Below, in pieces: positions 8,265 through 64,000 of a stretch of 64,000 nucleotides of DNA (positions are counted from its first letter, which is position 1; each line of letters starts with the position of its first letter). The notes below the pieces were generated by a model that was not told where the DNA came from, did no database searches, and saw only the letters and a program-made list of their open reading frames with translations. The position numbers and the translations under genes were made by a program. Source of the stretch: Eledone cirrhosa (taxonomy: Eukaryota); NCBI GenBank assembly GCA_964016885.1, contig OZ024742.1, positions 202,926,001-202,990,000 on the forward strand, given 5' to 3'.

Positions 8265-8306
8265 TTTATATACATATATTTATATATATATTTATATATA
8301 TATATC

Positions 8307-10303
8307 GAGTCTAACCTGCCAGTCAGACTGATAGCCCCCTCCCAGTCAGACATGGGGGTTATTAGAAAAAGCATTTTAGATAGGATCCCGCCCACACTTA
8401 AGAGTAAAATAAGGTTACAACTCTGGTCCTGCACCAGCCAGGTGCTGGACTGGTTTACCTGACAAACATAGGACTAGCTTCATACAACTAGACATACAAT
8501 TACTACTCCTCTATCTCGCCCATAGTCCTGAACAAGGCACTCATATTCATGATGAATAGGACAGACATAACATGCGACGAGGTCCGAATCATACACGCCG
8601 CCAGAAAGACCCTGATCTGATTCGGTGGGGACATATGGACCCAGAGCGACTGGCCAAATAATTTTGACATTACAATGGGCTCCAGTGACTCCGTGCAGCT
8701 AACTTGGTTGGGATATACATACTCTACGAGATCAGGAGAGAAATACCCAACCTGGATGGCGGGCTGTACCGAGACGACGCACTCTTCACCATAGTGGACC
8801 ACAGCACCACAATGGTAAAAAATATGAAGAGGAGAATTAGGCACTTCTTTAGCAAGGTAGGACTTAAAGTAGAGATGGAACCCAATAGAAAAGTAGTGAA
8901 TTTCCTGGACACCACCCTCAACCTCAACACCAAGCTACACCACCCATATCATAAACCCAATGAGAAGCTGGTGTATATCAACGCTGGATCCAATCACCCT
9001 AGATCTATAGTTAAGACCATAGTTAAGAGTGTCTCTGACAGGATCTCTAACTTGTCGGCCAATAAAGAGATCTTCAATAGTAACGCTGATTACTATAACT
9101 CAGCGTTAGCCAAGGCGTCCCACAGTCATAGGATCAGCTACAACCCTAAGGGACATGATCGAGATGACCTAAGGGACCAATACCCTCAGGGGCATGAGTC
9201 GCCCACCTAATCCCTCGGTGACCAGTAGTAACACTCCCAGACCCCTATCTGTCACCACCCCCGGTAGAAGGTCCCGCATACCCCACAGGTCTAATACCTA
9301 CAGTGCTGGCACCCCTGCACTGGCCCCACCACCCGCTGAACCCTAATTGAGCAGGGAGGCCGCACCTCGCAGGTTTATAGCCCCACGGTGGGCCCATATA
9401 ACCCTCATGAAAGTGACCGCTCTGCACACCTGAGTGACACCAACTGAGCTCGACCTGAGCTGTGCACAACCACGTGATGGACCATGGCGGACACCCAACA
9501 ACCCCGCAAGAATAGGACCAGAAAGGTCACATGGTATAACCCTCTGTACTCGGTGGGTCTACGTACCAGCCTGGCTAGAACATTCTTTAGAGTATAAATG
9601 TTTCACTAGGGTCACAAGTACTATAAAATATTCAACAGGCACACAGTGAAACTTTCCTACTCAACCACATGCTCCGTAGCCCAGCACACAGCCGGCATAA
9701 ATAGGAATAGGCTCACTGCCTCTAATACCACCGTAAACCCCGGAGCCACACAACAGAACCAGCACGCGGGACGCACCGGAACCCGGACAGGCCCAACTAG
9801 CACACCGGAACCCAACGACCCTGTGCTGATTGCGGAGTCTACCTAGCCAACCCCGAGTGATGGTAACCACGCGGTACATGTGGTGGGGCTTAAGACCCAT
9901 ACTATGCCCCCTTAGTAATGAATGCATGACGAAAAACGTAGTCTACAGGTGCAAGTTCACAACCCCTAACTCGGAGCACCACTACATAGGATCCACAGCG
10001 ACGAGCTTCAAAGATCGGTGGTATAACTATCGCCATTTCTTTAACAAAATAGATAAGAGGAAATGTACGGCCCTTTCTGAATTGATCTGGAAGCTCAAAC
10101 TTGAAATGAACCCGCACTCTCTGGTCTGGTCCATGGTTAGAAAGGTTCCCCCAGACAGAGGCTGGTCTGGTATTTACAACCTCTGTCTTAGTGAGACACT
10201 CAATATTCTTCATGGCGGAACCAAGCTATTAAACAGAAGGGCCGACTTATTCGGTGACTGCAGACACCTAAGGACGGGAACTTTCCTCAAGCTATATGGA
10301 TAA
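8307..10303 (+). mobile_element. Decayed Penelope-like retroelement (RT + C-terminal GIY-YIG endonuclease), 5'-truncated
   Basis: RT motifs FDITMGS, GGLYRDDAL, VNFLDTTLNL, PYHKPN..YINAGSNHP; KIFNRHTVKLSYS; CPLSNEC..NVVY..YIGST..FKDRW GIY-YIG and terminal DCRH; stops and frameshifts; begins in a (TA)n tract. Confidence 0.9.
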
Positions 10304-10555
10304 ACCCCGGTTAAGGCCTCCCACAACACCCCCTCCCCCTGTAGGTCCCCTACACCCCGTACCAATGACCAATGGACAACAACAACCACCCATAGTTTGT
10401 GGTCCCTATGGTGGATGGTCCACCAGATCCTCTACTGGTTAGGGGTCATCAAAATCACGTTTTATTGAAACTGATTTTATATATTTATATATATATATTA
10501 TATGTATATATATATATATATAGTTAAACGAATAGAGGTGTAACACACAAGTTAT

Positions 10556-10798
10556 TATATATTGGTAAACGGAATAGAAAATGCTGACAAACTGTTCACA
10601 GTTGAAAAATGGTTTAATTAGGAATAAAAGAGTATTAGTGATTGTATGGGTTAGTATTCAGTTGTGGTTTTAAGTTTTTAAGTTTTTACCGGTTGCGCAT
10701 TTCTAAATGCTTTTCAAAAATAATTTTGAGATAGAGTGTCCGTGCTGTTTGCTCTGATCAGCATTTGTCAGCATTTTCTATTCCGTTTACCAATATAT
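10556..10798. mobile_element. Small TA-embedded insert with about 35-bp inverted ends and an internal hammerhead-like motif (minus strand)
   Basis: ATATTGGTAAACGGAATAGAAAATGCTGACAAA inverted at 10764-10798; minus 10684-10720 reads TTT-TTGAAAA-GCATT tagA AATGC-GCAA-CCGG-TA-AAA. Confidence 0.7.
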
Positions 10799-11027
10799 AT
10801 TTATATATATATATTATATGTATATATATATATTTATATATATATATTTTATATGTGTATATGTGTGTATGTGTATATGTGTGTATTTTATATATATGTG
10901 TATATGTGTATATGTGTATATGTGTATATGTGTGTATATGTGTGTATTTTATATATATATGTATATATATATATTTTATATATATATGTATTTTATATAT
11001 ATATATGTATGTATATATGTATTATAT

Positions 11028-11636: not shown

Positions 11637-12927
11637 TATATATATGTATTTTATATATATATATATATGTGTATGTATATTTTATATATATATATATGTA
11701 TGTATATTTTATATATATATTTTCTTGACGTTATAGTCGCATATATGTTATAGAATGCCGTTAGCTTCTTGCTAAAACAATCTCTATACCTCTCATTTAT
11801 ATTTTATATATATATATATTTTATGTATATATATATATTTTATGTATATATATATTTTATGTATATATATATTTTATGTATATATATATTTTATGTATAT
11901 ATATATATTTTATTTATATATATTGTGCATACACACCTGTATGGATTTTTGTGTGTGTAGATGTGTGTGTGTCTGAGGGGGTAGGTGTGAGTGTATGTAC
12001 AAGACAACCAACATAAGCCTTTTATTTCTAAATTTTCTAAACTATCTAAGTATTGGTCTCTAACCATTATTTTAAGTATTACCACCCCACATAAATTCCT
12101 CAATTTGTATGTGTGGATGTGTGTGTGTGTCTGTGGAGGTGGGTGTGAGTGTATGTGCAAGCCAACCAACATAAGTCTTTTTATTTGTAAATTTCTACTC
12201 TAACCATAATTTTCAGTAGCACCACTCCACATAAATCCCTCAATTTAAGAATGTCCTATAGTATCTATTTCATACTATTAACCTTAATTGAATATATATC
12301 TGACCAGGAATGCTTTTTGTGAAAATCAGTCATATGGAACTATTGTCATCTTGCCTGATGGTTTGCACTTTACAACACCACCTGCCTCTTTGAGGTCACC
12401 CTACTAGCATCTACAAACTGACCAATGAGAATTAAGACTATTCCTGCTGACAACATTAAATTATTTCTAACAAGCTCATATGTCCTAAGGCTCTGATACT
12501 ATCAACACTATAAACACAGAGCTGGCATATCTAAGAACTGACTAACTGCCTGATTAGGTCATAGCCATTCAATGGCTATCATCAAAATATATATAGCAGT
12601 AAATAAAGGATTATGAGTTCATGCAATTGACTAAGTAAATAATGACAACAAGGATTACAGTTACGAAAGGTGTTAGGTATTATATATATATATATATATA
12701 TATATACTTGAAAAAGAAGTAAGGTTCTATACAAAACAGAGGTTATAGAGAAGAAGTGTAATTGGAAATGGCACGAAAAGTATGTTTAAAGGATCTGTTT
12801 TTCTTTTCTTCTTTCATTCGTTAAGTGACATTATTCAACATTTCGAAACCGGTTATATTTGATATACTTTATAAAACGCCTTTTTTTAAATTAAAACTTT
12901 TCCTCACATTGTTTCAATATATATACA

Positions 12928-13660
12928 AAGCTTGCATGCTCCGTTGGATGTGTAATAGTAATATACGTGAACGGCAAAGCATAAATGAACTAAGTGAGAA
13001 ATTAGGAATAAGAGGTATCAGATGCTGTTTACTCGAGAGAAGACTACGTCGGTATGGTCACGTGATGCGCATGAAAGACGACAGCAGTATAAAAAAGTGC
13101 AGGGCGAACAAAATAGATGGAAGCTACAGAATAGGCAGACCCAGAAAAACCTGGGACAATTTGATAAATTCCGACCTCACACACTTACACCTCTCCAAGA
13201 CAATGTCACTGGACCGAGATCTTTGGCGCTACACAGTAATACAGAAGACCCGCCTTGACTAAGTACAAAGCAAAACCTACAGTCAGTAGGTACCTCTTAA
13301 CCAAAAATACACCGCATTTCCACTAACCCTACCCCCATCTGCACCACCCCTTTCTCTGTAAAGTTATGCTGGTACCACAACATCCAGTCTTAAATAAATG
13401 AGGTTGTGTAGGTGTCACAACAAAAAAACACACAGTCCACGCTGTAATGTGGACATGTAGGCAACACGGTAGAAACCTCCCAGTCCATACTGTAAACGTG
13501 GTTGGTGTTAGGAAGGGCATCCAGTCGTAGAAAACCTGCCAGACAGTCCTATACGAGCAAGACAACCAATCTTGCCTCAAGTGGGACAATTCCCGTCTAA
13601 ACCCATGCTAGCGTGGAAGATAGACATTAAACGATGATGATGATCATGATCATGATGATT
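12928..13660 (+). mobile_element. RTE-clade LINE 3' end
   Basis: MLRWMCN..LGIRGIRCCLLERRLRRYGHVMRM..GRPRKTW..DRDLWR, 3' UTR, (GAT)n tail. Confidence 0.9.
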
Positions 13661-20034: not shown

Positions 20035-20555
20035 CTCTCAGCTATTTGAGATCAGCTCTCACCACCTCCGCCCAGATCTTCCTTGGTTTACCTCTACTGC
20101 AGCTTCTTTCAACTGGGATTTCCTGGCACTTCTTCACACAGTGATCATCATCCATGTGCATCACATGTATGTGCCAATGTAGTTTTCTCTCCTGCACAAC
20201 ACTTCTGGTTACTCTTAAAACCAGTTTCTGCCTCAGTTCATCCAAGCTCTGCCATACTCTCATATTTACATTGCACATCCAACGAAACATGGATGCTTCA
20301 TTTCTCTCCAAACCATGCATGTCCTCTGCAGTCTCTGCCCATATTTCACTAACATGCAGCATCAGACTTTGCACACAGGAATCATACAGACGTCCTTTTG
20401 TAAATAGGGGGAAGTCATTTGTTGTCGACAGTGTGAATACCGCCCTAAACTTCATCCATCCTATCCTTATTCTAGCTTTTATGCTCTCAGAGCACCGTCT
20501 CTGTTGCTAATTAGGTTACCTAGATAGCAGAAGCTATCAACCACTTTCATGGATC
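20035..20555 (-). mobile_element. RTE-clade LINE fragment
   Basis: KGRLYDSCVQSLMLHVSEIW..LERNEASMFRWMCN..ERKLHWHIHV..GKPRKIW. Confidence 0.88.
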
Positions 20556-21900: not shown

Positions 21901-22655
21901 CTAACAGCGCTGCGATCGAATGTGGCTTTTTAGCCCAGCCAATGATCTAAAATGTCTTGCACAGAGTCGGCAACCAAAACATTCACTGGGAATAGCCGGC
22001 TGTGGTTGGAGTTCATGTACTTTTGCATGTCGCTTGAGCCCTCCTGCTGATTTACATTCTCTACCACATGTTTGGCAAGCAGGCTGAGTAGCATCTCCAA
22101 CAGCAGCCTGGTAGTCAACCACTGGTCTTACTTTATGGCTGCGAAGATGACTTTCGAGTCCAGCTTTGCTGAGGCAGAGTCTCTCACAGACGCTGCATGT
22201 AAGCACCATAGGAGGACCCTCGCCGTCTGGAAGTGCAACAGCAATGCCCTTCCTCACATCCCGCTTTACTTTCTCGTATGCAATTCGAAATGCCTCAAAG
22301 GCAACTTTTCCCTCATATACAGTCTTTCTCCATTTATTACGATCAGCAGCAATATTTTCCCATGTACCAGCAGAGATGTTAGCGTCTTTCAGAGAGGCTT
22401 TCAAGGAATCCTTATACCTCTTTTTTGGTTTATGTGGCGGTCGTTTTCCTTTAACCAACTCTCCATAAAAGAGTTGTTTTGGTATTCTAGAATCCTTCAT
22501 CCTGGCAAGGTGACCACTCCAACGGAGTCGTTGTTTAAGCACAAGAGCTTCTATACTGTCACACATAGAGCTTTCCAAAATCTCGACATCACTGATGTGG
22601 TCCCTCCAGTGAACGCCATGGATCCGTCTGAGACACATCTGATGGAAACGCTCCA
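21901..22655 (-). mobile_element. RTE-BovB-type LINE 3' end with three C-terminal C2H2-like fingers
   Basis: LERFHQMCLRRI..QRLRWSGHLARMKDSRIPKQLFYGEL..GKR...PKKRYKD; fingers CSVC..SHLRSH, CQTC..RHAKVH, CRLC..SHIRSQ; tail GGCCATACTCGATAACGAG at about 21640-21665. Confidence 0.92.
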
Positions 22656-22934
22656 ATAAAAAAATAAAAAAAACCACAAACAAACAAAAAAAATCAAAAT
22701 AACAAAACACACACACTCACGCACACAACACAACAAAAACATCAACTGCCACGACCACCACCACCGCCGCCATCACCAGCGACCGGGCCTTAAGAAAACA
22801 ACTTTAATAATAATAATTTTTCTGCTTTTGGCACGGATCCAGCGACTGGTCCAGCGCATTATATATATATATATACACATATATATACACATATATACAC
22901 ATATATATATACATATATACACACATATATACAT

Positions 22935-23278
22935 GGAGGCACATGGCTTAGTGGTTAGAGCATTGGCCTTACAATCGAAACGCTGTGAGTTCAATTCTCA
23001 GACCGGGTGATGTGATATTTCCTTGAGCAAGACACTTTATTTCACATTGCTCCAGTTTACTCAGCTGTAGAAATGAGATGATAGGGACTGGGGTCCATAT
23101 CATTCCACTGCAAAGTGGTTGTGGAGGTGCCACGGCAAAAAAGCACCCAGCACTCACTGTAAATGAGGTTGGTGTTAGGAAGGGCATCCAGCTGTAGAAA
23201 TCAAGCCAGAATCAGTTCCCGTCCCACCCTTGCAAGCAGGGAAAAGTGGACGTAAAATGAAATGATGATGATGATGAT
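22935..23278 (+). mobile_element. SINE family A, full length
   Basis: GGAGGCACATGGCTTAGTGGTTAGAGC..GAGTTCAATTC..CCTTGAGCAAGACAC..(ATG)n tail. Confidence 0.92.
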
Positions 23279-23341: not shown

Positions 23342-24023
23342 TATATATATATATATGTATATATATATGTATATATATGTGTGTATATGTATATATGTAC
23401 ATATATGTCCTAATAAATCTGCCAATATATATATATCATCATTATTTTACGTCCACTTTTCCCTGCTTGATATATATATATATATATATATTGGCAGATT
23501 TATTAGGACAGAAGAGGGTGAAGTGTGATCAGAGAATCATATCTATTCTATAGATGAAGATGTAAGATGTATTTTCCAAAAAACATTTGAATAATTCGAG
23601 GTCATAGTTCATTTGAAGAGATTAAAAACAATTATTTGATGAAAGAGGAATGAGTTTCCATTGATACTTTTGTATGTATATATATATATTCAATTTAAAT
23701 GTCCATATAGAGCCATGACAGACTAAGGGAAGTATCAAGTATTCATTACAGTTGATAATCAAAAAGAGCTAGTGAGACAAGTAATAAAAAAGAAAAAAGA
23801 AATAATTAAATAAAAACTAAAAGAAAAGATAAAAGGGGAAAAATACAATAAAAATTAAATTTAATTTATTGAAGGCAAATGGGAGGCAGATTATGGATCA
23901 GAAAAAGAAAAGTTATATAAATGTATATAATTACAGTAATGTAATTAAATAGCTCTGTACAATACATAGAGGTCTCTTTTTTCCTTTACCTTTTTTATGG
24001 AATTACTTAAGACACACAAACAA

Positions 24024-24057
<34 letters not shown>

Positions 24058-24694
24058 ATACACGTGTTTAGATATTCATATTCAGGCAATTATGCCATTC
24101 AAATGTCAGAAAGACATAATGGATGAAAGAGAGAATGTGAAGTAAAACTTCAGCTGAAAGCACACGGTTAGATTAGATAGAATGAACTTTATGTCATTTG
24201 ATGGGGTGATAGGAACCAGTGCTTACATACTAATAAGCTAATAGTACATATAGCTTATTGTGTAAACCATATACACCAATATATGAATAATTACTACTGT
24301 AGATGGAAGCCTTATTCTATAGGGGTATCTTAACAGATATTCTAACCTATTGTTTACAGTAATTAACTGTTGCAATTGTTTCTGCATTTGGGATTACTAC
24401 ATATTCAAATCACCCAATGCTTAGATAAATAATTTTATATATATATACAAGTATACATATACATTATTACACACACACATATACATATATATAAAGATAG
24501 AACCAGATGAAACTAGTTAGACCATTATTCAACTTGAGTCGAGGCCCGATGGCTGAGCTCTTTCCGTTTCAACAGCTAGTTCCAGATGTGTGTATGTGTA
24601 TCTATCTATCTATTATATAACGAAGGAAATGTGGTAAGGAACCAGGTGAACCATAACGCACCAAAGTACTCAATACTTAGGGTAGTAGAGTGGG

Positions 24695-24813
24695 TAATAG
24701 GAACAAGTAAGACCCCGACGGCTGAGCTCAAGCCGTTTCGACGGCTAATTCGTTCAGAATTAGCCGTCGAAACGGCTTGAGCTCAGCCATCGGGGTCTTA
24801 CTTGTTCCTATTA
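24695..24813. repeat. Near-perfect palindrome (57-bp arms, 5-nt loop) containing the 3' half of a hammerhead
   Basis: Arms differ at one position; each strand reads hairpin-GAAA-CGGCT TGAGCTC AGCC(G/A)-TC-GGGGTC. Confidence 0.9.
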
Positions 24814-24864
24814 TCTATTATATATATATATATAGTTAGCTAATAAACAACATCAGATAATTAT

Positions 24865-24935
24865 TTCATTTACCAAAGGTTTCACGAAGACAGACGAGCT
24901 TGACATTTACGTCTGCCTTCAATCATCAGAACGAA
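24865..24935 (-). ncRNA. Type I hammerhead ribozyme, canonical core
   Basis: Minus: TTCGTT-CTGATGA-t TGAAGGCAGACG (13-nt loop) CGTCTGTCTTCG t-GAAA-CC ttt GG-TA-AATGAA; stem I 6 bp, stem II 12 bp, GUA cleavage triplet. Confidence 0.78.
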
Positions 24936-24993
24936 TTTATACCTACATAGAGCACTCTCTTTTCCTTTACCTTTCCTACGGAAATACTTCATT

Positions 24994-25026
<33 letters not shown>

Positions 25027-25934
25027 GCAAATAGACACATGTTCAAATATGTTCCAACTATATTTAAAATTTTGAAAAACAAATTTTAGAGTCCAAATTA
25101 CAATGACCCAACTTAAATAATAATAATAATAATGAAATTATTGTGTAAAGTGCTCAGGTGCACTACAACTCGTCAAAGGTGCATGTATAGTACATAGAAT
25201 AATATACAAATGTCAGGGAAGTGAATAGTGTATGAGTCATGATATACATGTGGGTATGTGTGTGGAGGGGGAACATTAGGTGTAGTGTTGGCAAATCTCA
25301 GGAAGCATGGAGGTTTTAAACTTATAACAGTCCATTAATCACTATGTCTCATTGTACACCATCTGCTTTTTATTTGTGACAAGATCAATATTTGAGAACA
25401 GTGTGGTGCTGTAATTTAAAAAGATCTGGTATATCTTAAGCTCAGAAGCTAAAATTTACCTCTGAGGTTTTGTTCAAGATAAGCTCCTTAACATACAGGA
25501 TTTTTAAGGCTTCAACAGTACAATGGTGTTTAACATTTTCTGATACCATTATAAGATCTAGTCTTTGCAAAGGTCTCCCAATATAATCCATATTGAATGT
25601 TCCTCTTTTTCAAGCACTAGGTGCTATGTGTGAATGAAGATATATTCCTTCTAAATGGATTTCGAAATGAATGGTTGTGCATATATCTTAGTCAATACAT
25701 ACAATTGTATTTGGGCATGTGTATTTCAATATATTCATGTGTGTTATTGTAAATATATATATTTGTATTTATGATTACTATAAATGTATATTCATAATTG
25801 ACAATTGAAGTATAAGTTAGTAATAATATTTGTAACACAAGTAGTTTTCTTATATATCTTTTATACTGACCATTTATTTTTATTGAGTCTTATCATAATT
25901 ATTACATTTATTTATTACTATTGTTATAGTTATT

Positions 25935-27293
25935 ATCTAAACTATAATAAAGCAAGGGCTGCAGGACTGTGTACGGTTTATTTCTTTTAATCCAGTTAGT
26001 AAAATAAGTTGGATTACTTTGAATAAATAATTGTTTCTACTTTTGGCACAAGGCCAGCAATTACCCAATGCATTACTGGTACTTTATTCTATCGACCCCG
26101 GAAGGATGAAAAGCAAAGTTAACCTCGGCGGGATTTGAACTCAGATCATACAGGGAGGTAACTCTATGCTTCAAAGCATGGCATCTGATCCTTTACCGAA
26201 ATTTAGCACATAAGTTATGTAATATTCATTCATTACTTTGAATAAATAATGAATGAATATTACATAACTTATGTGCTAAATTTCGTAAACAAATAATTTT
26301 GTAAAAATAAATAATCTTTTCAAAGTTGCACTTCCGGTATATCGTCGCCACCACCACCACTTCAACTACCATATATAGAGAAAGAGAGAGTGTGTGATGA
26401 GAGAGATAAAGAGATTATGATTTTCTACACACTGACACACATGAGTGTGCACATGCATACATCTATATGTATGAGTATATAACTATTATTAGTATATAAC
26501 TATAATCGCGCAATCACAAACTTATAAAAATACACACTCACGGACATTCACACAAATACACATACATTCACACATACTTTCACACAAACATACATACATG
26601 CACACATATACATTTACACAAACACCCACATACAGTCATGATAGCATCAGGTTTAATTGGAAATGGGAGGGTAAAACAAGTATAACGTTTTATTAGCATG
26701 TGTAGTGTGTATATTGATATTATACGCAAGTATATATGCATGTAGATATGATACATCAAACAAAACCGTAATTGACAATATACACAGAAATTGAACGAAG
26801 ACTGTTACACTGTTTTCTGTAAATAGAAATGTATTCCATGATACATTAGAAAAAGACAATATTATATATCTGCTAGCATGTGTAGTGTGTATATTGATAT
26901 TATATGCATGTAGATATGATCAAATAAAATCGTAATTGACAATATACACAGAAATTGAACGAAGACTGTGTTACACTGTCTTATGTAATCCATGATACAT
27001 TAAAAAAGACAATATTATATATAAACTGCATTAGGAGAAAATTAGTGACAGAAATATATGAATATTTATTTAAACGATCGCTAACCGGAAGTGTTGACAT
27101 TTGAAAATTTTAAAGAAGTGAATCTTTAAATAAGTAATAAAATATATTTAATGAACAGCCACGAAATTTAGTAGATAAATTATGTAATATTCATTCATTA
27201 TTTTTTCAAAGTAATCCAACTTATTTTACTAAGGGGATCAAAAATTATAAACCATACACAGTCCCGCGCTTCTTACTTTATTATAGTTTAGAT
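25935..27293. mobile_element. About 1.36-kb element with about 200-bp imperfect terminal inverted repeats
   Basis: ATCTAAACTATAATAAAG..GGACTGTGTAYGGTTTAT..TTAGTAAAATAAGTTGGATTACTTTGAA..CACTTCCGGT mirrored at 27084-27293; internal about 180-bp tandem duplication at 26690-27020. Confidence 0.75.
26026..26197 (-). mobile_element. tRNA-headed SINE family B (Meta-domain-like body), 5'-truncated
   Basis: Minus: GAGTTCAAATC B box, TTTCATCCTTCCGGGGTCGATAGAATAAAGTACCAG body, CTTGTGCCAAAAGTAGAAACAATTA tail; duplicated flank ATTACTTTGAATAAATAAT. Confidence 0.85.
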
Positions 27294-29032: not shown

Positions 29033-32000
29033 GTGCAGGCCGGAGAATTGTTCTTCCTCCTTCAATCTATGATTCCCCTCGCTTCTACAGTGAGTGCTTT
29101 CAGAATTCGATGACTGCAGTTTGACACATGGTAAAGCCATCTTATTTCATCACGATAACAACTAACCCTAACTGGGATGAAATAAAAAATAGTTTGCACC
29201 CTGGTGAAAAACCTAGTGACCATCCTGATATTTGTGCAAGTCTTCAAGATCAAGTATGACAGCCTCATGGATGATTACTGAAAAAAAATGTCCCAGGAAA
29301 AGTTGTGGCTCATTCTGCTACAATAGAGTGGCCTCACTCATGCTCATATTCTGCTGATAATGGCTGAAGTTAGCAAGCCCAAAACTGCTGATGCCATTGA
29401 TCAGATAGTGTACTGTGAGATTTCTGATAAAGAGACCAATCCAATTCTGCATAAGATCATCACATCCTGCAACATTCATGGCTCTGGTGGACAAGCTAAT
29501 ATGATGTGCTCATGTATGGAAGGGCTAGGACAACAACGCCATTGCTCAAAAAGTTATCCCAAGGCATTCAGACAAACCACATTTGTTGCCGAAAATTCCT
29601 TTCCGGAGTATAGCAGAAGGGATAGACAGCTTAGTGGTAACACCCATACAATCCAACTGAAAGGTCAAGAATTTACTGTTGATAATCGTTGGATTGTTCC
29701 ATACAACCCTTTCCTCTCATTGAGATATCAGTGCCACATCAATTGTGAGGTTGTCCACAGTGTCAAGGCTGTTAAGTACTTATATAAGTACATCACAAAA
29801 GGATCAGACAAGATCACTTTCACTATTAAGGATGATCAAGGAAATTGTGTCCATGCCTAAAATGAGATTGAGACCTATATCAATGCATGGTACATCTCAG
29901 CCAGTGAAGCATTCTGGAGAATCTATAAATTTCCATTACATCATCGAAAACCGCCAGTTGAAAAGTTACCTTGCCATTTACCTGGAGAACAAATGGTCGT
30001 GTATGAGCGAGGGCAGGAAGAAAGTATTGTTTCTAGGGGAGAGCCAATGACTAAGTTGACGGAATATTTTCAACTGAATATTAGAGATCCACTGGCACAA
30101 AACATATTGTATATTGATATTCCTAGATATTTCACTTGGACAAACAAAAAGTGGCAAAGAAGAAAAAAGGGACATCTGGATGGTGATCAACAATTTATGA
30201 GTGAATCTCTTGGACACATTCCAACAGTATCTCTCAGTAGACATCAATCTGAATTATATTACCTCAGGATGATCCTACATCACAAGGCTAGGTCAACTTC
30301 ATACAAAGAGTTGAGAACAATTGAAGGAGTTGAATTTCCAACATTCCAAGAAGCATGCAGGAAACTTGGTCTGTTAGATAAAGATGGAGAAAAAGACAAA
30401 GCTATGGAAGAGGCCTTATCCATTACGCATGGTCTTCAGCTGTGAGAGATTTTCTGCACCATTTTATTGTACAGCATGCCAAATGACCCTCTGCAGTTCT
30501 GGGAGAAATGGAAGAATTGTCTTGTAGAGGATATCATGCAAGTCATGTCCATGCAAACCGTGCAGATTCGCCAACATTGAATCTTGAGCAACTGGTTATT
30601 TTTCACAAAGTAATCACCTCTGTATATGAAAATGAAGGCAGAATTTTCTGCTTGAATGCAAGTGGAGGTACAGGAAAGACCTACGTCATAAACATCCTAT
30701 TTGATTACCTCCAATCTAAAAAGAAAAATTGCACTTGCCACTACCATATCTGGAATAACAGCCACTTTGCTACACAAAGATAGAACTCTTCATTCCAAGT
30801 GCAAGATTCCTGTCAATGTGACTGCTGAATCAACTTGCTTCTTCACAAAGAGCGATGACACAGGTAAACTTATGCAGCAAGCTGACCTGCTAATCATTGA
30901 TGAGATAGGTATGGGACATAAGCATATCTTTGAATGCCTTGACAGGAGCTTCAAAGATGTTCGAGATTTCAAAAAGCCATTTGGTGGTATTACTATCTGG
31001 TGACTGGAAGCAAATTCTTCCAGTTGTACGTCATGGTGTTAGACCACAAATAGTTGAGGCAACCATCAAGAGATCCTATCTCTGGGACTATGTAGAAACC
31101 ATGGAGATGACAACCAATCAACGGTTAATTAATGCAGAGGATTCTGATGAAAGACAGTTTGCAAACTACCTTCTTGATGTGAGAAATGGTAACATTCCAA
31201 CTGTAGGTGCATTCACAATTCTTCTGCCAAATGAACTTTATCTTGAATATGGTAATGTGACTGTGTGATTTTATGTATACAAATCTTCCAAGAAACTACA
31301 CAAACCCACTATGGCTTGCAAATAGAGCCATTATCACTCCAGCAAATTATGCAGTAAGATTGGTGAATGAGTTCATGGTCAACAAGGTCCCTGGTCATAA
31401 GATAATCTACAGAAGCTCTGATACAGTAGATAATTATTTCTACTTTTGGCACAAGGCCAGCAATTATCGCAGTGTATTACTGGTACTTTATTTTATCGAC
31501 CCTGTAAGGATGAAAGGCAAAGTTAACCTCAGCAGGATTTGAACTCAGAATGGCAAGCGACGTAACTCTATGTGTCAAAGCATAGTGTCCGACCCTCTAC
31601 CGATACTGCCAATCCAGGTAGATAATGAACTGCAATATCCAATTGAGTTCATCAACAAACTTACCCCATCAGGCTTCCCAACACACATACTTAAACTGAA
31701 GAAAGGCAGTTTCATCATGCTTCTGAGAAATCTGGATCCTCTAAACGGGCATTGCAATGGTACACACTACATCACCATCAGTTTACATAATCATGTAATT
31801 GAAGCTGAAGTGGTATTGGGTCTCAATGCTGGAACACGGTTGCCACATGTATCTCAAGAGCTTGAGTTCCCTTTCACCTTTACTCGCAAGCAATTTCCTG
31901 TCAAACCAACCTTTGCCCGTTATATGCAACAAGGCACAAGGGCAGACATTTGAAAAGACAGGTGTATATCTACCAACACAATTCTTCTCACATGGTCAGA

Positions 32001-49597: not shown

Positions 49598-51560
49598 AGG
49601 TAGTGGTTGTAGTGGTAGGTGGTGTGGGGGGGATGGTATGGCAGTAGCAGAGTATGGGGATGGTGATTGTAGTGGTAGGTGGTGTGGGGGGGGGTATGGC
49701 AGTAGCAGAGTATGGGGATGGTGATTGTAGTGGTAGGTGGTGTGGGGGGGGGGGTATGGCAGTAGCAGAGTATGGGGATGGTGATTGTAGTGGTAGGTGG
49801 TGTGGGGGGATGGTATGGCAGTAGCAGAGTATGGTGATGGTGATTGTAGTGGTAGGTGGTGTGGGGGGATGGTATGGTAGTAGCAGAGTATGGGGATGGT
49901 GATTGTAGTGGTAGGTGGTGTGGGGGGGATGGTATGGCAGTAGCAGAGTATGGGGATGGTGATTGTAGTGGTAGGTGGTGTGGGGGGATGGTATGGTAGT
50001 AGCAGAGTATGGGGATGGTGATTGTAGTGGTAGGTGGTGTGGGGGGGGGGGGTATGGCAGTAGCAGAGTATGGGGATGGTGATTGTAGTGGTAGGTGGTG
50101 TGGGGGGATGGTATGGCAGTAGCAGAGTATGGGGATGGTGATTGTAGTGGTAGGTGGTGTGGGGGGATGGTATGGCAGTAGCAGAGTATGGGGATGGTGA
50201 TTGTAGTGGTAGGTGGTGTGGGGGGGATGGTATGGCAGTAGCAGAGTATGGGGATGGTGATTGTAGTGGTAGGTGGTGTGGGGGGATGGTATGGCAGTAG
50301 CAGAGTATGGTGATGGTGATTGTGGTGTGGGGGGATGGTATGGCAGTAGCAGAGTATGGGGATGGTGATTGTAGTGGTAGGTGGTGTGGGGGGATGGTAT
50401 GGCAGTAGCAGAGTATGGTGATGGTGATTGTGGTGTGGGGGGATGGTATGGTAGTAGCAGAGTATGGGGATGGTGATTGTAGTGGTAGGTGGTGTGGGGG
50501 GGATGGTATGGCAGTAGCAGAGTATGGGGATGGTGATTGTAGTGGTAGGTGGTGTGGGGGGATGGTATGGCAGTAGCAGAGTATGGGGATGGTGATTGTA
50601 GTGGTAGGTGGTGTGGGGGGATGGTATGGCAGTAGCAGAGTATGGTGATGGTGATTGTGGTGGTAGGTGGTGTGGGGGGATGGTATGGCAGTAGCAGAGT
50701 ATGGTGATGGTGATTGTGGTGTGGGGGGATGGTATGGCAGTAGCAGAGTATGGGGATGGTGATTGTAGTGGTAGGTGGTGTGGGGGGGATGGTATGGCAG
50801 TAGCAGAGTATGGGGATGGTGATTGTAGTGGTAGGTGGTGTGGGGGGATGGTATGGCAGTAGCAGAGTATGGTGATGGTGATTGTGGTGTGGGGGGATGG
50901 TATGGCAGTAGCAGAGTATGGGGATGGTGATTGTAGTGGTAGGTGGTGTGGGGGGGATGGTATGGCAGTAGCAGAGTATGGGGATGGTGATTGTAGTGGT
51001 AGGTGGTGTGGGGGGGATGGTATGGCAGTAGCAGAGTATGGGGATGGTGATTGTAGTGGTAGGTGGTGTGGGGGGGATGGTATGGCAGTAGCAGAGTATG
51101 GGGATGGTGATTGTAGTGGTAGGTGGTGTGGGGGGATGGTATGGCAGTAGCAGAGTATGGGGATGGTGATTGTGGTGTGGGGGGATGGTATGGCAGTAGC
51201 AGAGTATGGGGATGGTGATTGTAGTGGTAGGTGGTGTGGGGGGGATGGTATGGCAGTAGCAGAGTATGGGGATGGTGATTGTAGTGGTAGGTGGTGTGGG
51301 GGGGATGGTATGGCAGTAGCAGAGTATGGTGATGGTGATTGTGGTGTGGGGGGATGGTATGGCAGTAGCAGAGTATGGGGATGGTGATTGTAGTGGTAGG
51401 TGGTGTGGGGGGATGGTATGGCAGTAGCAGAGTATGGTGATGGTGATTGTGGTGTGGGGGGATGGTATGGCAGTAGCAGAGTATGGGGATGGTGATTGTA
51501 GTGGTAAGTGGTGTGGTGATAATGATTGTAGTTGTAGGTTGTATGGGGGGATGGTATGGC
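49598..51560. repeat. G-rich minisatellite, about 59-bp unit (47-62 bp variants), roughly 33 copies
   Basis: GGATGGTATGGCAGTAGCAGAGTATGGGGATGGTGATTGTAGTGGTAGGTGGTGTG(n) with variable G-run; short variant lacks about 12 bp. Confidence 0.97.
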
Positions 51561-56475: not shown

Positions 56476-58209
56476 ATATTAAATTCAAATATTAATAAAA
56501 TAGATGTTCTTGTGATCAATTCAATTTTATTATACATATTTCAGAGGTACTTGAATCAAGTTCAATAGTACGTCCTCATCAGATAAAATAAAATGATACA
56601 TGACATACCCTGACATGTTAAATGCTTAAGATTTAATCAAGGTAGTGATTAACTTGGGAGAAAACTCAATATTTATACCGTACAAATGAGAACATGGGAA
56701 AACGTAATAGAATCAATAGAGAGGGTGTGAGTAAGAAAAAGATTCCTTTAATGCAACAGTTATAGAGATATTAATGTTTGAAATACTACTGTAGGACTAT
56801 AGAGGAAGACTATAGATATCTGGAGTTATATTAGTTTTTAGTTTGAGAATGCAGCTGATATATAATTAAAGAGAGAGGGATAAGGGGAGTAATTTATGCA
56901 CAAATATTCATCAGACACATATAAACATATATAGCCTTGGCGGTTAAGTTTCAAAATATTTAATTTATGTTATTTTAGGGTAACAAATCAAAATTATAGG
57001 TTTTAAAAGTTGAGGGTTATTTGTGTTATAAATTTTATAAATTTATAAATGTGTTAAATTTCTAAAATTCAAAGTTTTATGAAATCGAATTTATGAAATC
57101 GAATTTAAAGGATTATACTGTTCAATATTCATGCAAAGGTAATCTTTAAAATATTACTTGTAATATTATCAACAATATCCATATGTATAGTTTATGAAGT
57201 ATTTACAGTTATAATTATCAAGGAATTTATTGTTAAATGGTTATAGTGGTTATAGTGGTTATAGTGGTTATAAAAATTTACAGGTTAGATATCAAAACTA
57301 TATTTAAAACAGAGATAGAAAAATAAATGTCTGGATCAAAGTTAATAATATCCAAAAATATTGTTTAAGAACAAGATGGCATGTTGATATACAATACCTA
57401 TGGCTTTTTGGATATACTTTTGTTATACTTTAGACACTATAACCATTTAACAATAAATTCCTTGATAATTATAACTGTAAATACTTCATAAACTATACAT
57501 ATGGATATTGTTGATAATATTACAAGTAATATTTTAAAGATTACATTTGCATGAATATTGAACAGTATAATCCTTTAAATTCGATTTCATAAATTCGATT
57601 TCATAAAACTTTGAATTTTAGAAATTTAACACATTTATAAAATTTATAAAATTTATAACACAAATAACCCTCAACTTTTAAAACCTATAATTTTGATTTG
57701 TTACCCTAAAATAACATAAATTAAATATTTTGAAACTTAACCGCCAAGGCTATATATGTTTATATGTGTCTGATGAATATTTGTGCATAAATTACTCCCC
57801 TTATCCCTCTCTCTTTAATTATATATCAGCTGCATTCTCAAACTAAAAACTAATATAACTCCAGATATCTATAGTCTTCCTCTATAGTCCTACAGTAGTA
57901 TTTCAAACATTAATATCTCTATAACTGTTGCATTAAAGGAATCTTTTTCTTACTCACACCCTCTCTATTGATTCTATTACGTTTTCCCATGTTCTCATTT
58001 GTACGGTATAAATATTGAGTTTTCTCCCAAGTTAATCACTACCTTGATTAAATCTTAAGCATTTAACATGTCAGGGTATGTCATGTAACATTTTATTTTA
58101 TCTGATGAGGACGTACTATTGAACTTGATTCAAGTACCTCTGAAATATGTATAATAAAATTGAATTGATCACAAGAACATCTATTTTATTAAATATTTGA
58201 ATTTAATAT
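56476..58209. repeat. Long inverted repeat: about 773-bp arms (56476-57248 / 57435-58209) with a 186-bp spacer, in a TA tract
   Basis: Arms are reverse complements with only about 4 differences found by eye; each arm carries a hammerhead-like motif. Confidence 0.93.
58090..58160 (+). ncRNA. Hammerhead-like motif in the long inverted repeat (mirror copy at 56524-56595, minus)
   Basis: ATTTTATTttat-CTGATGA-GGAcGTACtaTTGAA cttga TTCAAGTACcTCT-GAAA-TATG-TA-tAATAAAAT; minimal stem III, imperfect stem I junction. Confidence 0.55.
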
Positions 58210-58299
58210 TAATAACTCTGGAAAATATCTTCTTGTTGAGTGCTTTCAATCTACTGTAATACTCATTCTTTGATGTACTCATTGAATCTTGTTTAACTC

Positions 58300-58354
<55 letters not shown>

Positions 58355-62965: not shown

Positions 62966-63355
62966 ATCATCATCATCATTTCATCATTTCATTTTACGTC
63001 TGCTTTTCCCTGCTTGCAAAGGTGGGACAGGAACTGATTCTGGCTTGATTTCTACAGCTTGATGCCCTTCCTAACACCAACCTCATTTACAGTGAGTGCT
63101 GGGTGCTTTTTTTCCGTGGTGCCTACACATCCACTTTACAGTGTGGGCTGGGTGCTTTTTTGCCGTGGCACCTCCATGACCACTTTGCAGTGGAATGATA
63201 GGGACCCCAGTCCCTATCACCTCATTTCTACAGCTGAATGAACTGGAGAAATGTGAAATAAAGTGTCTTGCTCAAGGAAACAACACATCACCCAGTCTGA
63301 GAATTGAACTCACAACCTTTCGATTGCAAGGCCAATGCTCTAACCACTAAGCCAC
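62966..63355 (-). mobile_element. SINE family A with an internal duplication
   Basis: Family A sequence with the TTTACAGTG..GGGTGCTTTTT..CCGTGG block duplicated. Confidence 0.88.
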
Positions 63356-64000
63356 ATACGTAATATATTGAGATGAAAATCTTAGGTTAAATGAATGTGT
63401 CTAGCCACCAAGGCTTCATAACAGGTGTAGCCAAGGAGAAGTAAACCATGAATAGTACATCTTGGGTAGAACTACCAGGATACAGGATGGAGCTTGACCG
63501 ACTCCAGCTGGGTTGCCTGGGTGATGTTGTCTGATGTTGAACCCCTAAAAACAACCAAGGACAAATCAGTTGAAAAAGAAAATAAACTCCCTCTAGGAGT
63601 TATTACAGCATCAACATCGCCATTTTTACGTTGCCTTTCCCGTGTTGACTTACGATGGATGAGACATTTTGAGGCAATGTTTTACAGACAGATGCCCTTG
63701 CTGACACTAACCCTTTTAGTTGCTTCTTACAACATGCAGGGATATACAAAATGCATATACATAGATGTGTGTGTTTGCATGTGTGCATGTGTGTGTTTAC
63801 AATGAGCTTCTGAGATTTCTGTCTACCAAATATCAACCCCAGTACATATTTTTTAGATTTGGTGCTTATTTATTAATCCCTTTTTGTGGAGCCAGTAAAT
63901 TATGGGGCGTAAACAGTAAATGTAAACACAGACATAAACACACACACACATTTATACATATATGCATATAAATATATACATACATATATATACACATAAC

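Follow-up and report, generated by a model that had tools for sequence, protein, structure and literature searches.

The locus and its surroundings

The window, i.e., the whole 64-kb stretch of DNA analysed here, is microsatellite-rich, AT-rich and eukaryote-like, and it is crowded with mobile-element remnants; its repeats prompt the guess of a cephalopod-like animal. At 24835–24993 lies an island of about 159–161 bp between two (TA)n tracts (24819–24834 on the left and 24994–25026 on the right), which together are the probable insertion target; the first-pass annotation had likewise placed an island of about 160 bp between TA tracts at this point. On the minus strand the island carries a hammerhead ribozyme motif (24865–24935) followed by the ribozyme-downstream sequence (24835–24864), which runs to the left TA tract and which read depth and loose ends mark as the high-copy end of an inverted piece. 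On the plus strand there is a TACATAGAG/pyrimidine-rich block (24940–24993) that faces away from the ribozyme piece and that, from repeat comparison and loose ends, is a putative terminal extension, or "tail". The pyrimidine block also bears a likeness to a 3' splice region. It recurs next door at 23963–24008 (84.8% over 46 nt, E-value of 2e-9), as had been noticed earlier. The island was said to have no ORF, and we too found no credible one: a stop-free plus-strand frame of 79 codons (24836–25072) gave no Pfam match, and on the minus strand there is a 36-codon ATG frame. Nor was a host exon recognised among the 150 frames scanned, which gave only a Helitron helicase, a zinc-finger match and weak matches.

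Other features of the window include a frameshifted Helitron-like remnant with PIF1 helicase domains (29327–31950), nested inverted repeats at 25935–27293 (97-nt arms 1165 nt apart, with inner pairs of 55 nt and 42 nt), a G-rich minisatellite with a 59-bp unit, 33 copies and a marked strand skew (49603–51516), and a minus-strand tRNA-like head at 63289–63361 (29.5 bits, just over the Rfam gathering score) that has similar heads near 22940 and is probably a tRNA-derived SINE. Three frames (12825–13262, 20042–20506 and 21901–22716) look by eye like the 3' ends of LINE ORFs, and one of the three contains C2H2 zinc fingers.

A complete type I hammerhead motif

A descriptor scan identified the minus-strand motif at 24865–24935 as a type I hammerhead in which the core nucleotides CUGANGA, GAAA and UH stand where three helices meet, helix I being open, and read variants and folding bear on the same elements. 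Helix I pairs 24935–24930 with 24870–24865 (6 bp, including one G·U) and is followed by the core CUGAUGA (24929–24923), the N7 of which (24925) is U or C among family copies. The segment 24922–24884 begins and ends with a U·U at 10.1–11.1 (U 24922 opposite U 24884), within which lie the 12 bp of helix II (24921–24910/24896–24885) and a variable 13-nt loop II. The remainder (24883–24871) comprises GAAA (24883–24880), a near-palindromic helix III (ACC/GGU with the loop UUU), and the cleavage triplet GUA with U16.1 at 24872 and A17 at 24871, so that the predicted cut falls at 24871/24870. Throughout, the scan agrees with the core nucleotides, the 6-bp stem I, the 12-bp stem II with its U-U and the ACC/GGU stem III that had been read from the letters before. 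The accompanying label "canonical" is apt for the complete core but not for the rest, given the 12-bp helix II, the missing G10.1–C11.1, the weak helix III and the silence of the Rfam models. There is also no single unpaired base between positions 9 and 10.1, and none of the alternative pairing registers at 10.1–11.1 yields a G-C.

The motif was the sole match in the 64-kb window at each set of helix minima used (6/12/2, 6/8/2, 5/5/2 and 4/4/2), while 300 block-wise dinucleotide shuffles of the window gave mean matches of 0, 0, 0.003 and 0.017, respectively. The hammerhead families of Rfam (release 15) have the same catalytic core, yet the Infernal/Rfam check that had been suggested came back negative: no hammerhead family matched the whole 64 kb at the gathering score, and the 26 matches to 24400–25100 at E ≤ 10 included none to a hammerhead family. 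On its sequence, the motif is a real and complete hammerhead, and it is predicted to cut itself.

Folding of the 24865–24935 motif gave a z of −2.59, with 1 of 200 shuffles equally good. Helix II is predicted to pair with a probability near 1, its first pair excepted, and helix III with a probability of about 0.4–0.5. The active arrangement lies 0.2–0.3 kcal/mol above the minimum when 0–15 nt of flank are included. In the whole island, where the core pairs with downstream sequence, it is disfavoured for that reason, lying 3.9 kcal/mol above a predicted fold that has no helix I. As to a contact between loops 1 and 2, a 4×5 internal loop is predicted and, past it, a second segment of helix I (6 bp), whose 5' strand (24945–24940) overlaps the inversion junction described below; loop II sits 12 bp out.

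The family in public reads

We compared four public runs (X1, X5, X6 and X14) with 24500–24992 at 80% likeness, leaving out runs with small shares. Depth in X1, which is not to be read as a copy number, was 1.4–1.9e5 at 24857–24890, 2.5e4 at 24891–24907, 1.4e3 at 24908–24924, 4.8e2 at 24925–24941 and 0.9–1.4e5 at 24942–24975, with about 1e2 at 24500–24516, a contrast of about a thousandfold within the run. The raw reads of X14 had the same shape, with 775, 792 and 732 reads at 24866, 24877 and 24885, respectively, then 167 at 24901, 109 at 24906, 58 at 24925 and 48 at 24932. The hammerhead family is high-copy and the 5' half of its ribozyme is rare; the suggestion that the ribozyme is part of a repeat family is thereby borne out, and it is strengthened by the variants described below. 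Depth does not step at the predicted cut (24871/24870), which argues that uncleaved sequence was the source of most copies; it falls instead along helix II, and this fall can reflect either 5' truncation at the hairpin or a divergent helix II in other subfamilies. Molecule ends at 24750, 24758 and 24859 in X14 were rejected as element ends since they coincide with AATT sites and are library cut sites, and the end at 24983 is probably an AATT-type library cut site in other copies. The runs X5 and X6, which have other organism codes, hold mostly the neighbouring 24620–24822 repeat, X6 also having a few pieces of the hammerhead family. The runs listed as containing the sequence include no RNA run, which does not bear on whether it is expressed. 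Beyond these runs, a 26-nt family pattern had no match in metagenome contigs and a 19-nt pattern none in viral contigs; an 18-nt pattern had 54 matches in metagenome contigs, two of them with CUGANGA ≤70 nt upstream, neither like the hammerhead family.

Of 118 variant rows 40 were listed, and among these nine variants fall within the motif, all of them in loops, at N7 or pair-keeping: loop II has four, loop III and N7 have one each, and three are pair-keeping. The pair-keeping changes are U-A to U·G at 24866, U·G to U-A at 24885 and G·U to A-U at 24932, the last being A-U in 32 of 48 X14 reads; N7 (24925) changes from U to C in 20 of 58. Fold-compatible substitutions make up 82 of the 213 possible, and the chance that nine of nine listed variants (among the 40 of 118 rows) would be compatible is about 0.001 if they are independent, or about 0.01, calculated by hand, with 24906–24908 taken as one event. 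There was no two-sided compensatory change among the 40 rows listed. The loop III variant, at 24877, has a frequency of 34% in X1 and in X14 alike; it turns helix III into a near-perfect palindrome and takes the predicted self-duplex from −5.1 to −8.9 kcal/mol. By analogy, such a palindromic helix III is the dimer signature of the hammerheads of Penelope-like elements (PLEs) (PMC4209133).

These results bear on whether the motif is a chance look-alike, or else a dead fossil of a family that never depended on cleavage. As none of the 300 shuffles held a strict match and all nine motif variants in the 40 rows listed are compatible, chance is excluded, an argument that bears on chance and not on the silence of a single copy. 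In favour of a look-alike or fossil speak the unmatched Rfam models, a helix III predicted to be paired about 0.4–0.5 of the time, and the dispensability of hammerhead cleavage for insertion in vitro reported for one PLE (PMC11167929). Taking look-alike and fossil together, we regard this explanation as highly improbable.

Orientation of the island and its decayed sister copy

Loose ends preceding the block were found before 24940 in one contig of X6 and before 24942 and 24944 in 26 and 70 contigs of X1, with a median of 14–15 letters in X1. Their sequence matches the minus-strand reading of the island's far left end (18 of 20 letters in the X6 contig) and then forms a short hairpin; the window itself has the same form at 23944–23962. 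This would indicate that the usual order on one strand is ribozyme, downstream end, hairpin, TACATAGAG block and TA tract, an order by which the island would be a head-to-head inversion inside (TA)n. Relative to most copies, the halves of the island stand in opposite orientation. We infer that the island consists of two outward-facing pieces with a junction at about 24940–24944, where some ten bases of the hairpin are missing; none of the read pieces listed spans this junction. The earlier description of the island as essentially ribozyme plus flanks stands as regards the lack of an ORF; otherwise the island resembles two pieces of a larger element put together so that both face outwards, rather than a ribozyme unit standing on its own.

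About 1 kb away, the plus strand carries at 23850–24010 a decayed sister copy whose parts follow the common order: first an eroded ribozyme with the downstream end, then the hairpin and the block. The ribozyme core of this copy is destroyed. Its block is certain and its upstream homology is weak: the ribozyme match has the predicted orientation and was equalled by none of 1000 shuffles, but it ranked third among 1366 real tiles of the window. A candidate inverted block upstream of this copy was discarded, 110 of 1000 shuffles being equally good.

That the core is intact here and lost in the sister copy could suggest that the ribozyme was retained by the host at this single locus, processing an intron or non-coding transcript as the conserved amniote intronic hammerheads do, and the active fold would allow it, lying no more than 0.2 kcal/mol above the minimum when about 15 nt of flank are included. 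Yet an intact core is also expected of a young insertion, the scanned frames gave no host exon, and at 24885 (in part) and 24932 (in most reads) the island has weaker G·U pairs than the commoner alleles, as expected of drift or subfamily origin. We therefore consider exaptation very unlikely.

Neighbouring inserts and a Penelope-like remnant

Immediately to the left of the island, at 24620–24822, inverted repeats and depth reveal a palindromic insert of a different and far more abundant family (X1 depth of about 3e6, versus about 1e2 at 24500–24516). Its 66-nt inverted arms hold the 3' half of a hammerhead-like fold twice, head to head and lacking CUGANGA; outward along the left arm are a helix II strand, GAAA, a 6-bp helix III and GUC, and the insert folds back in the would-be helix II. 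An extension of about 65 bp is present on one arm only. Rfam microRNA matches at 24706–24802 were dismissed, as they are below the gathering score and reflect the long hairpin. A decayed third piece of this family lies at 24545–24582.

A second, unrelated type I hammerhead family occurs as two identical copies at 56492–58303 (CUGAUGA at 56582 on the minus strand and at 58102 on the plus strand). These lie in near-perfect inverted arms of about 765 bp (56492–57256 and 57427–58192), with an extension of roughly 110 bp on the right arm only and TA tracts outside; the hammerhead has a 7-bp helix I, an interrupted helix II, a palindromic AUAUGUAU helix III and a predicted cut after 58153. Kinship between this hammerhead and that at 24865–24935 found no support, as 178 of 500 shuffles scored as well. 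The two other hammerhead-bearing families of the window share the outward-facing, one-tailed, TA-flanked layout. Elsewhere, a TA-flanked insert at 10520–10803 has inverted arms that match perfectly over 36 nt, and it is extended on a single side; no hammerhead was recognised in it.

Between TA tracts at 8306–10450 we identified a degraded Penelope-like element with look-alikes of an RT thumb and of a GIY-YIG domain, the latter C-terminal, at 8689–10300, which Pfam did not recognise. The island has no similarity to this remnant (25 of 100 and 69 of 100 shuffles scored as well), and within the 64-kb window no RT/GIY-YIG ORF is tied to the hammerhead family.

Origin and possible activity

The complete type I hammerhead of the island belongs to a high-copy repeat, present here as a short and inverted copy, that is likely the terminal repeat (pseudo-LTR) of a PLE. 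The hammerhead would cut its own RNA at 24871/24870, probably poorly by itself and more readily when dimeric or assisted by the protein of the element. Inversion within (TA)n agrees with the published signature of PLE insertions, which are described as comprising an inverted truncated copy, a 30–40-bp tail at one end only and microsatellite or (TA)n targeting (PMC8557442). Here we find a high-copy dispersed family, an inverted copy, an extension at one end and a microsatellite target, together with a 5' truncation that can also be read as divergence; the fall in depth could be subfamily divergence rather than truncation, which would count against a PLE origin.

If the island did arise from a PLE, a GIY-YIG/RT protein would have nicked the (TA)n tract, and the RNA would have been copied from two nearby starts, one giving the terminal block (24940–24993, plus strand) and the other the inverted piece that ends at 24835 (minus strand). 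Most copies would then stop matching inside helix II, while the island copy would have run a few bases past helix I, a read-through by which the ribozyme would have been kept whole. Its role in the parent element may be to process transcripts that are long or tandem, probably acting as a dimer or assisted by protein; the solitary stub at 24835–24993 most likely has no function for the host and is carried along as a passenger. We also put forward, as a rather unlikely extension of this model, that helix II of the ribozyme sets where the RT stops or folds back, that several unrelated families here are copied mostly as half-ribozyme stubs and palindromes (compare the fold-back of the 24620–24822 neighbour exactly in a helix-II-like hairpin and the drop in depth along helix II in the hammerhead family), and that the rare read-through copy is an undescribed variant with a long, U·U-closed helix II that gained its second helix I segment at the junction and could cleave as a monomer.

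Animal genomes contain thousands of such hammerhead motifs, and the association of hammerheads with PLEs has already been described. Should the PLE reading be true, the motif at 24865–24935 would add a hammerhead family whose helix II is unusually long and which escapes the Rfam models, and the three independent families of the window, outward-facing, one-tailed and in (TA)n, would be material on how PLEs start, stop and invert reverse transcription and on whether PLE ribozymes cut at all. A literature search, limited to main texts, found no paper on the family, which may already be catalogued, for instance in the supplements in which many hammerhead alignments are kept or in Repbase-type libraries. 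Octopus Penelope-like families are listed in PMC13282606, the main text of which contains neither "ribozyme" nor "hammerhead".

Comparison with known systems

The motif may be compared to retrozymes, which are proposed to derive from the terminal repeats of PLEs, with solo monomers described as common and cleavage reported in one of nine dimer elements (bioRxiv 10.64898/2026.07.22.740005). As the solo monomer of a non-LTR retrozyme, the island would be a non-coding unit of 150–400 nt that is transcribed, cleaves itself, is circularised and is re-inserted by a PLE enzyme. It is indeed short and non-coding, and like the axolotl HHR_Amex2 (Cervera and de la Pena 2020, PMC7229834) it has a type I fold with a 6-bp helix I, a 2-bp helix III and a U·U at the base of helix II, so that the U·U is not a new feature; the predicted second helix I segment past the 4×5 internal loop recalls extended type I folds, and the HHR_Amex2 monomer is reported to cleave by 22% in 1 h, the dimer better (PMC7229834). 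HHR_Amex2 is, however, described as lying in 350-bp tandem repeats, with a tetraloop III and loop–loop contacts (PMC7229834), whereas here the motif is dispersed and inverted, sits in (TA)n, has a far longer helix II and shows no tandem array at the 24865–24935 locus. What adjoins the block in other copies stands inverted rather than head-to-tail, the extra helix I is drawn partly from the inverted block, and copies of cleaved RNA would start at the cut, where X14 depth has no step. We consider a retrozyme monomer quite unlikely, and its proposed origin from PLE terminal repeats makes it overlap with the main reading.

To return to the PLE reading, by layout alone the island resembles the Poseidon element PAc of Anolis (Frangieh et al. 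2024, PMC11167929), which is described as having a hammerhead, a stem-loop and an optional tail, with two end points around the stem-loop about 100 nt downstream of the hammerhead; the tail is explained there by two internal RT start sites in that stem-loop. Further likenesses are AT-rich targets and uncleaved sequence in inserted copies, and the PAc hammerhead is reported to be protein-assisted (PMC11167929). A difference from PAc is that no ORF start was recognised in the hammerhead family here.

A close likeness is to the metazoan PLE pseudo-LTR hammerheads (min-HHR and variants; Cervera and de la Pena 2014, PMC4209133), described as heterogeneous families of type I motifs with a long helix II and a small palindromic helix III that occur mostly as solitary dispersed copies and in opposite-strand pairs, all of which we see counterparts to here. 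They differ from our motif in a helix II of 7–8 bp in Schistosoma (versus 12 bp and a 13-nt loop here), a helix I of 4–5 bp (versus 6 bp), and a conserved G10.1–C11.1 with a bulged base after A9, in place of which our motif has a U·U and no such bulge (PMC4209133). The monomers of these hammerheads are reported as inactive and the activity of their dimers as low (PMC4209133), dimer action also being supported by PMC6765202 and PMC6155905. The canonical metazoan type I hammerhead, on the other hand, is described as pairing a 6-bp helix I with a 4-bp helix II and conserved loop contacts (PMC4209133); by analogy, the motif at 24865–24935 appears closer to the PLE-type motifs that cleave poorly alone than to this canonical type.
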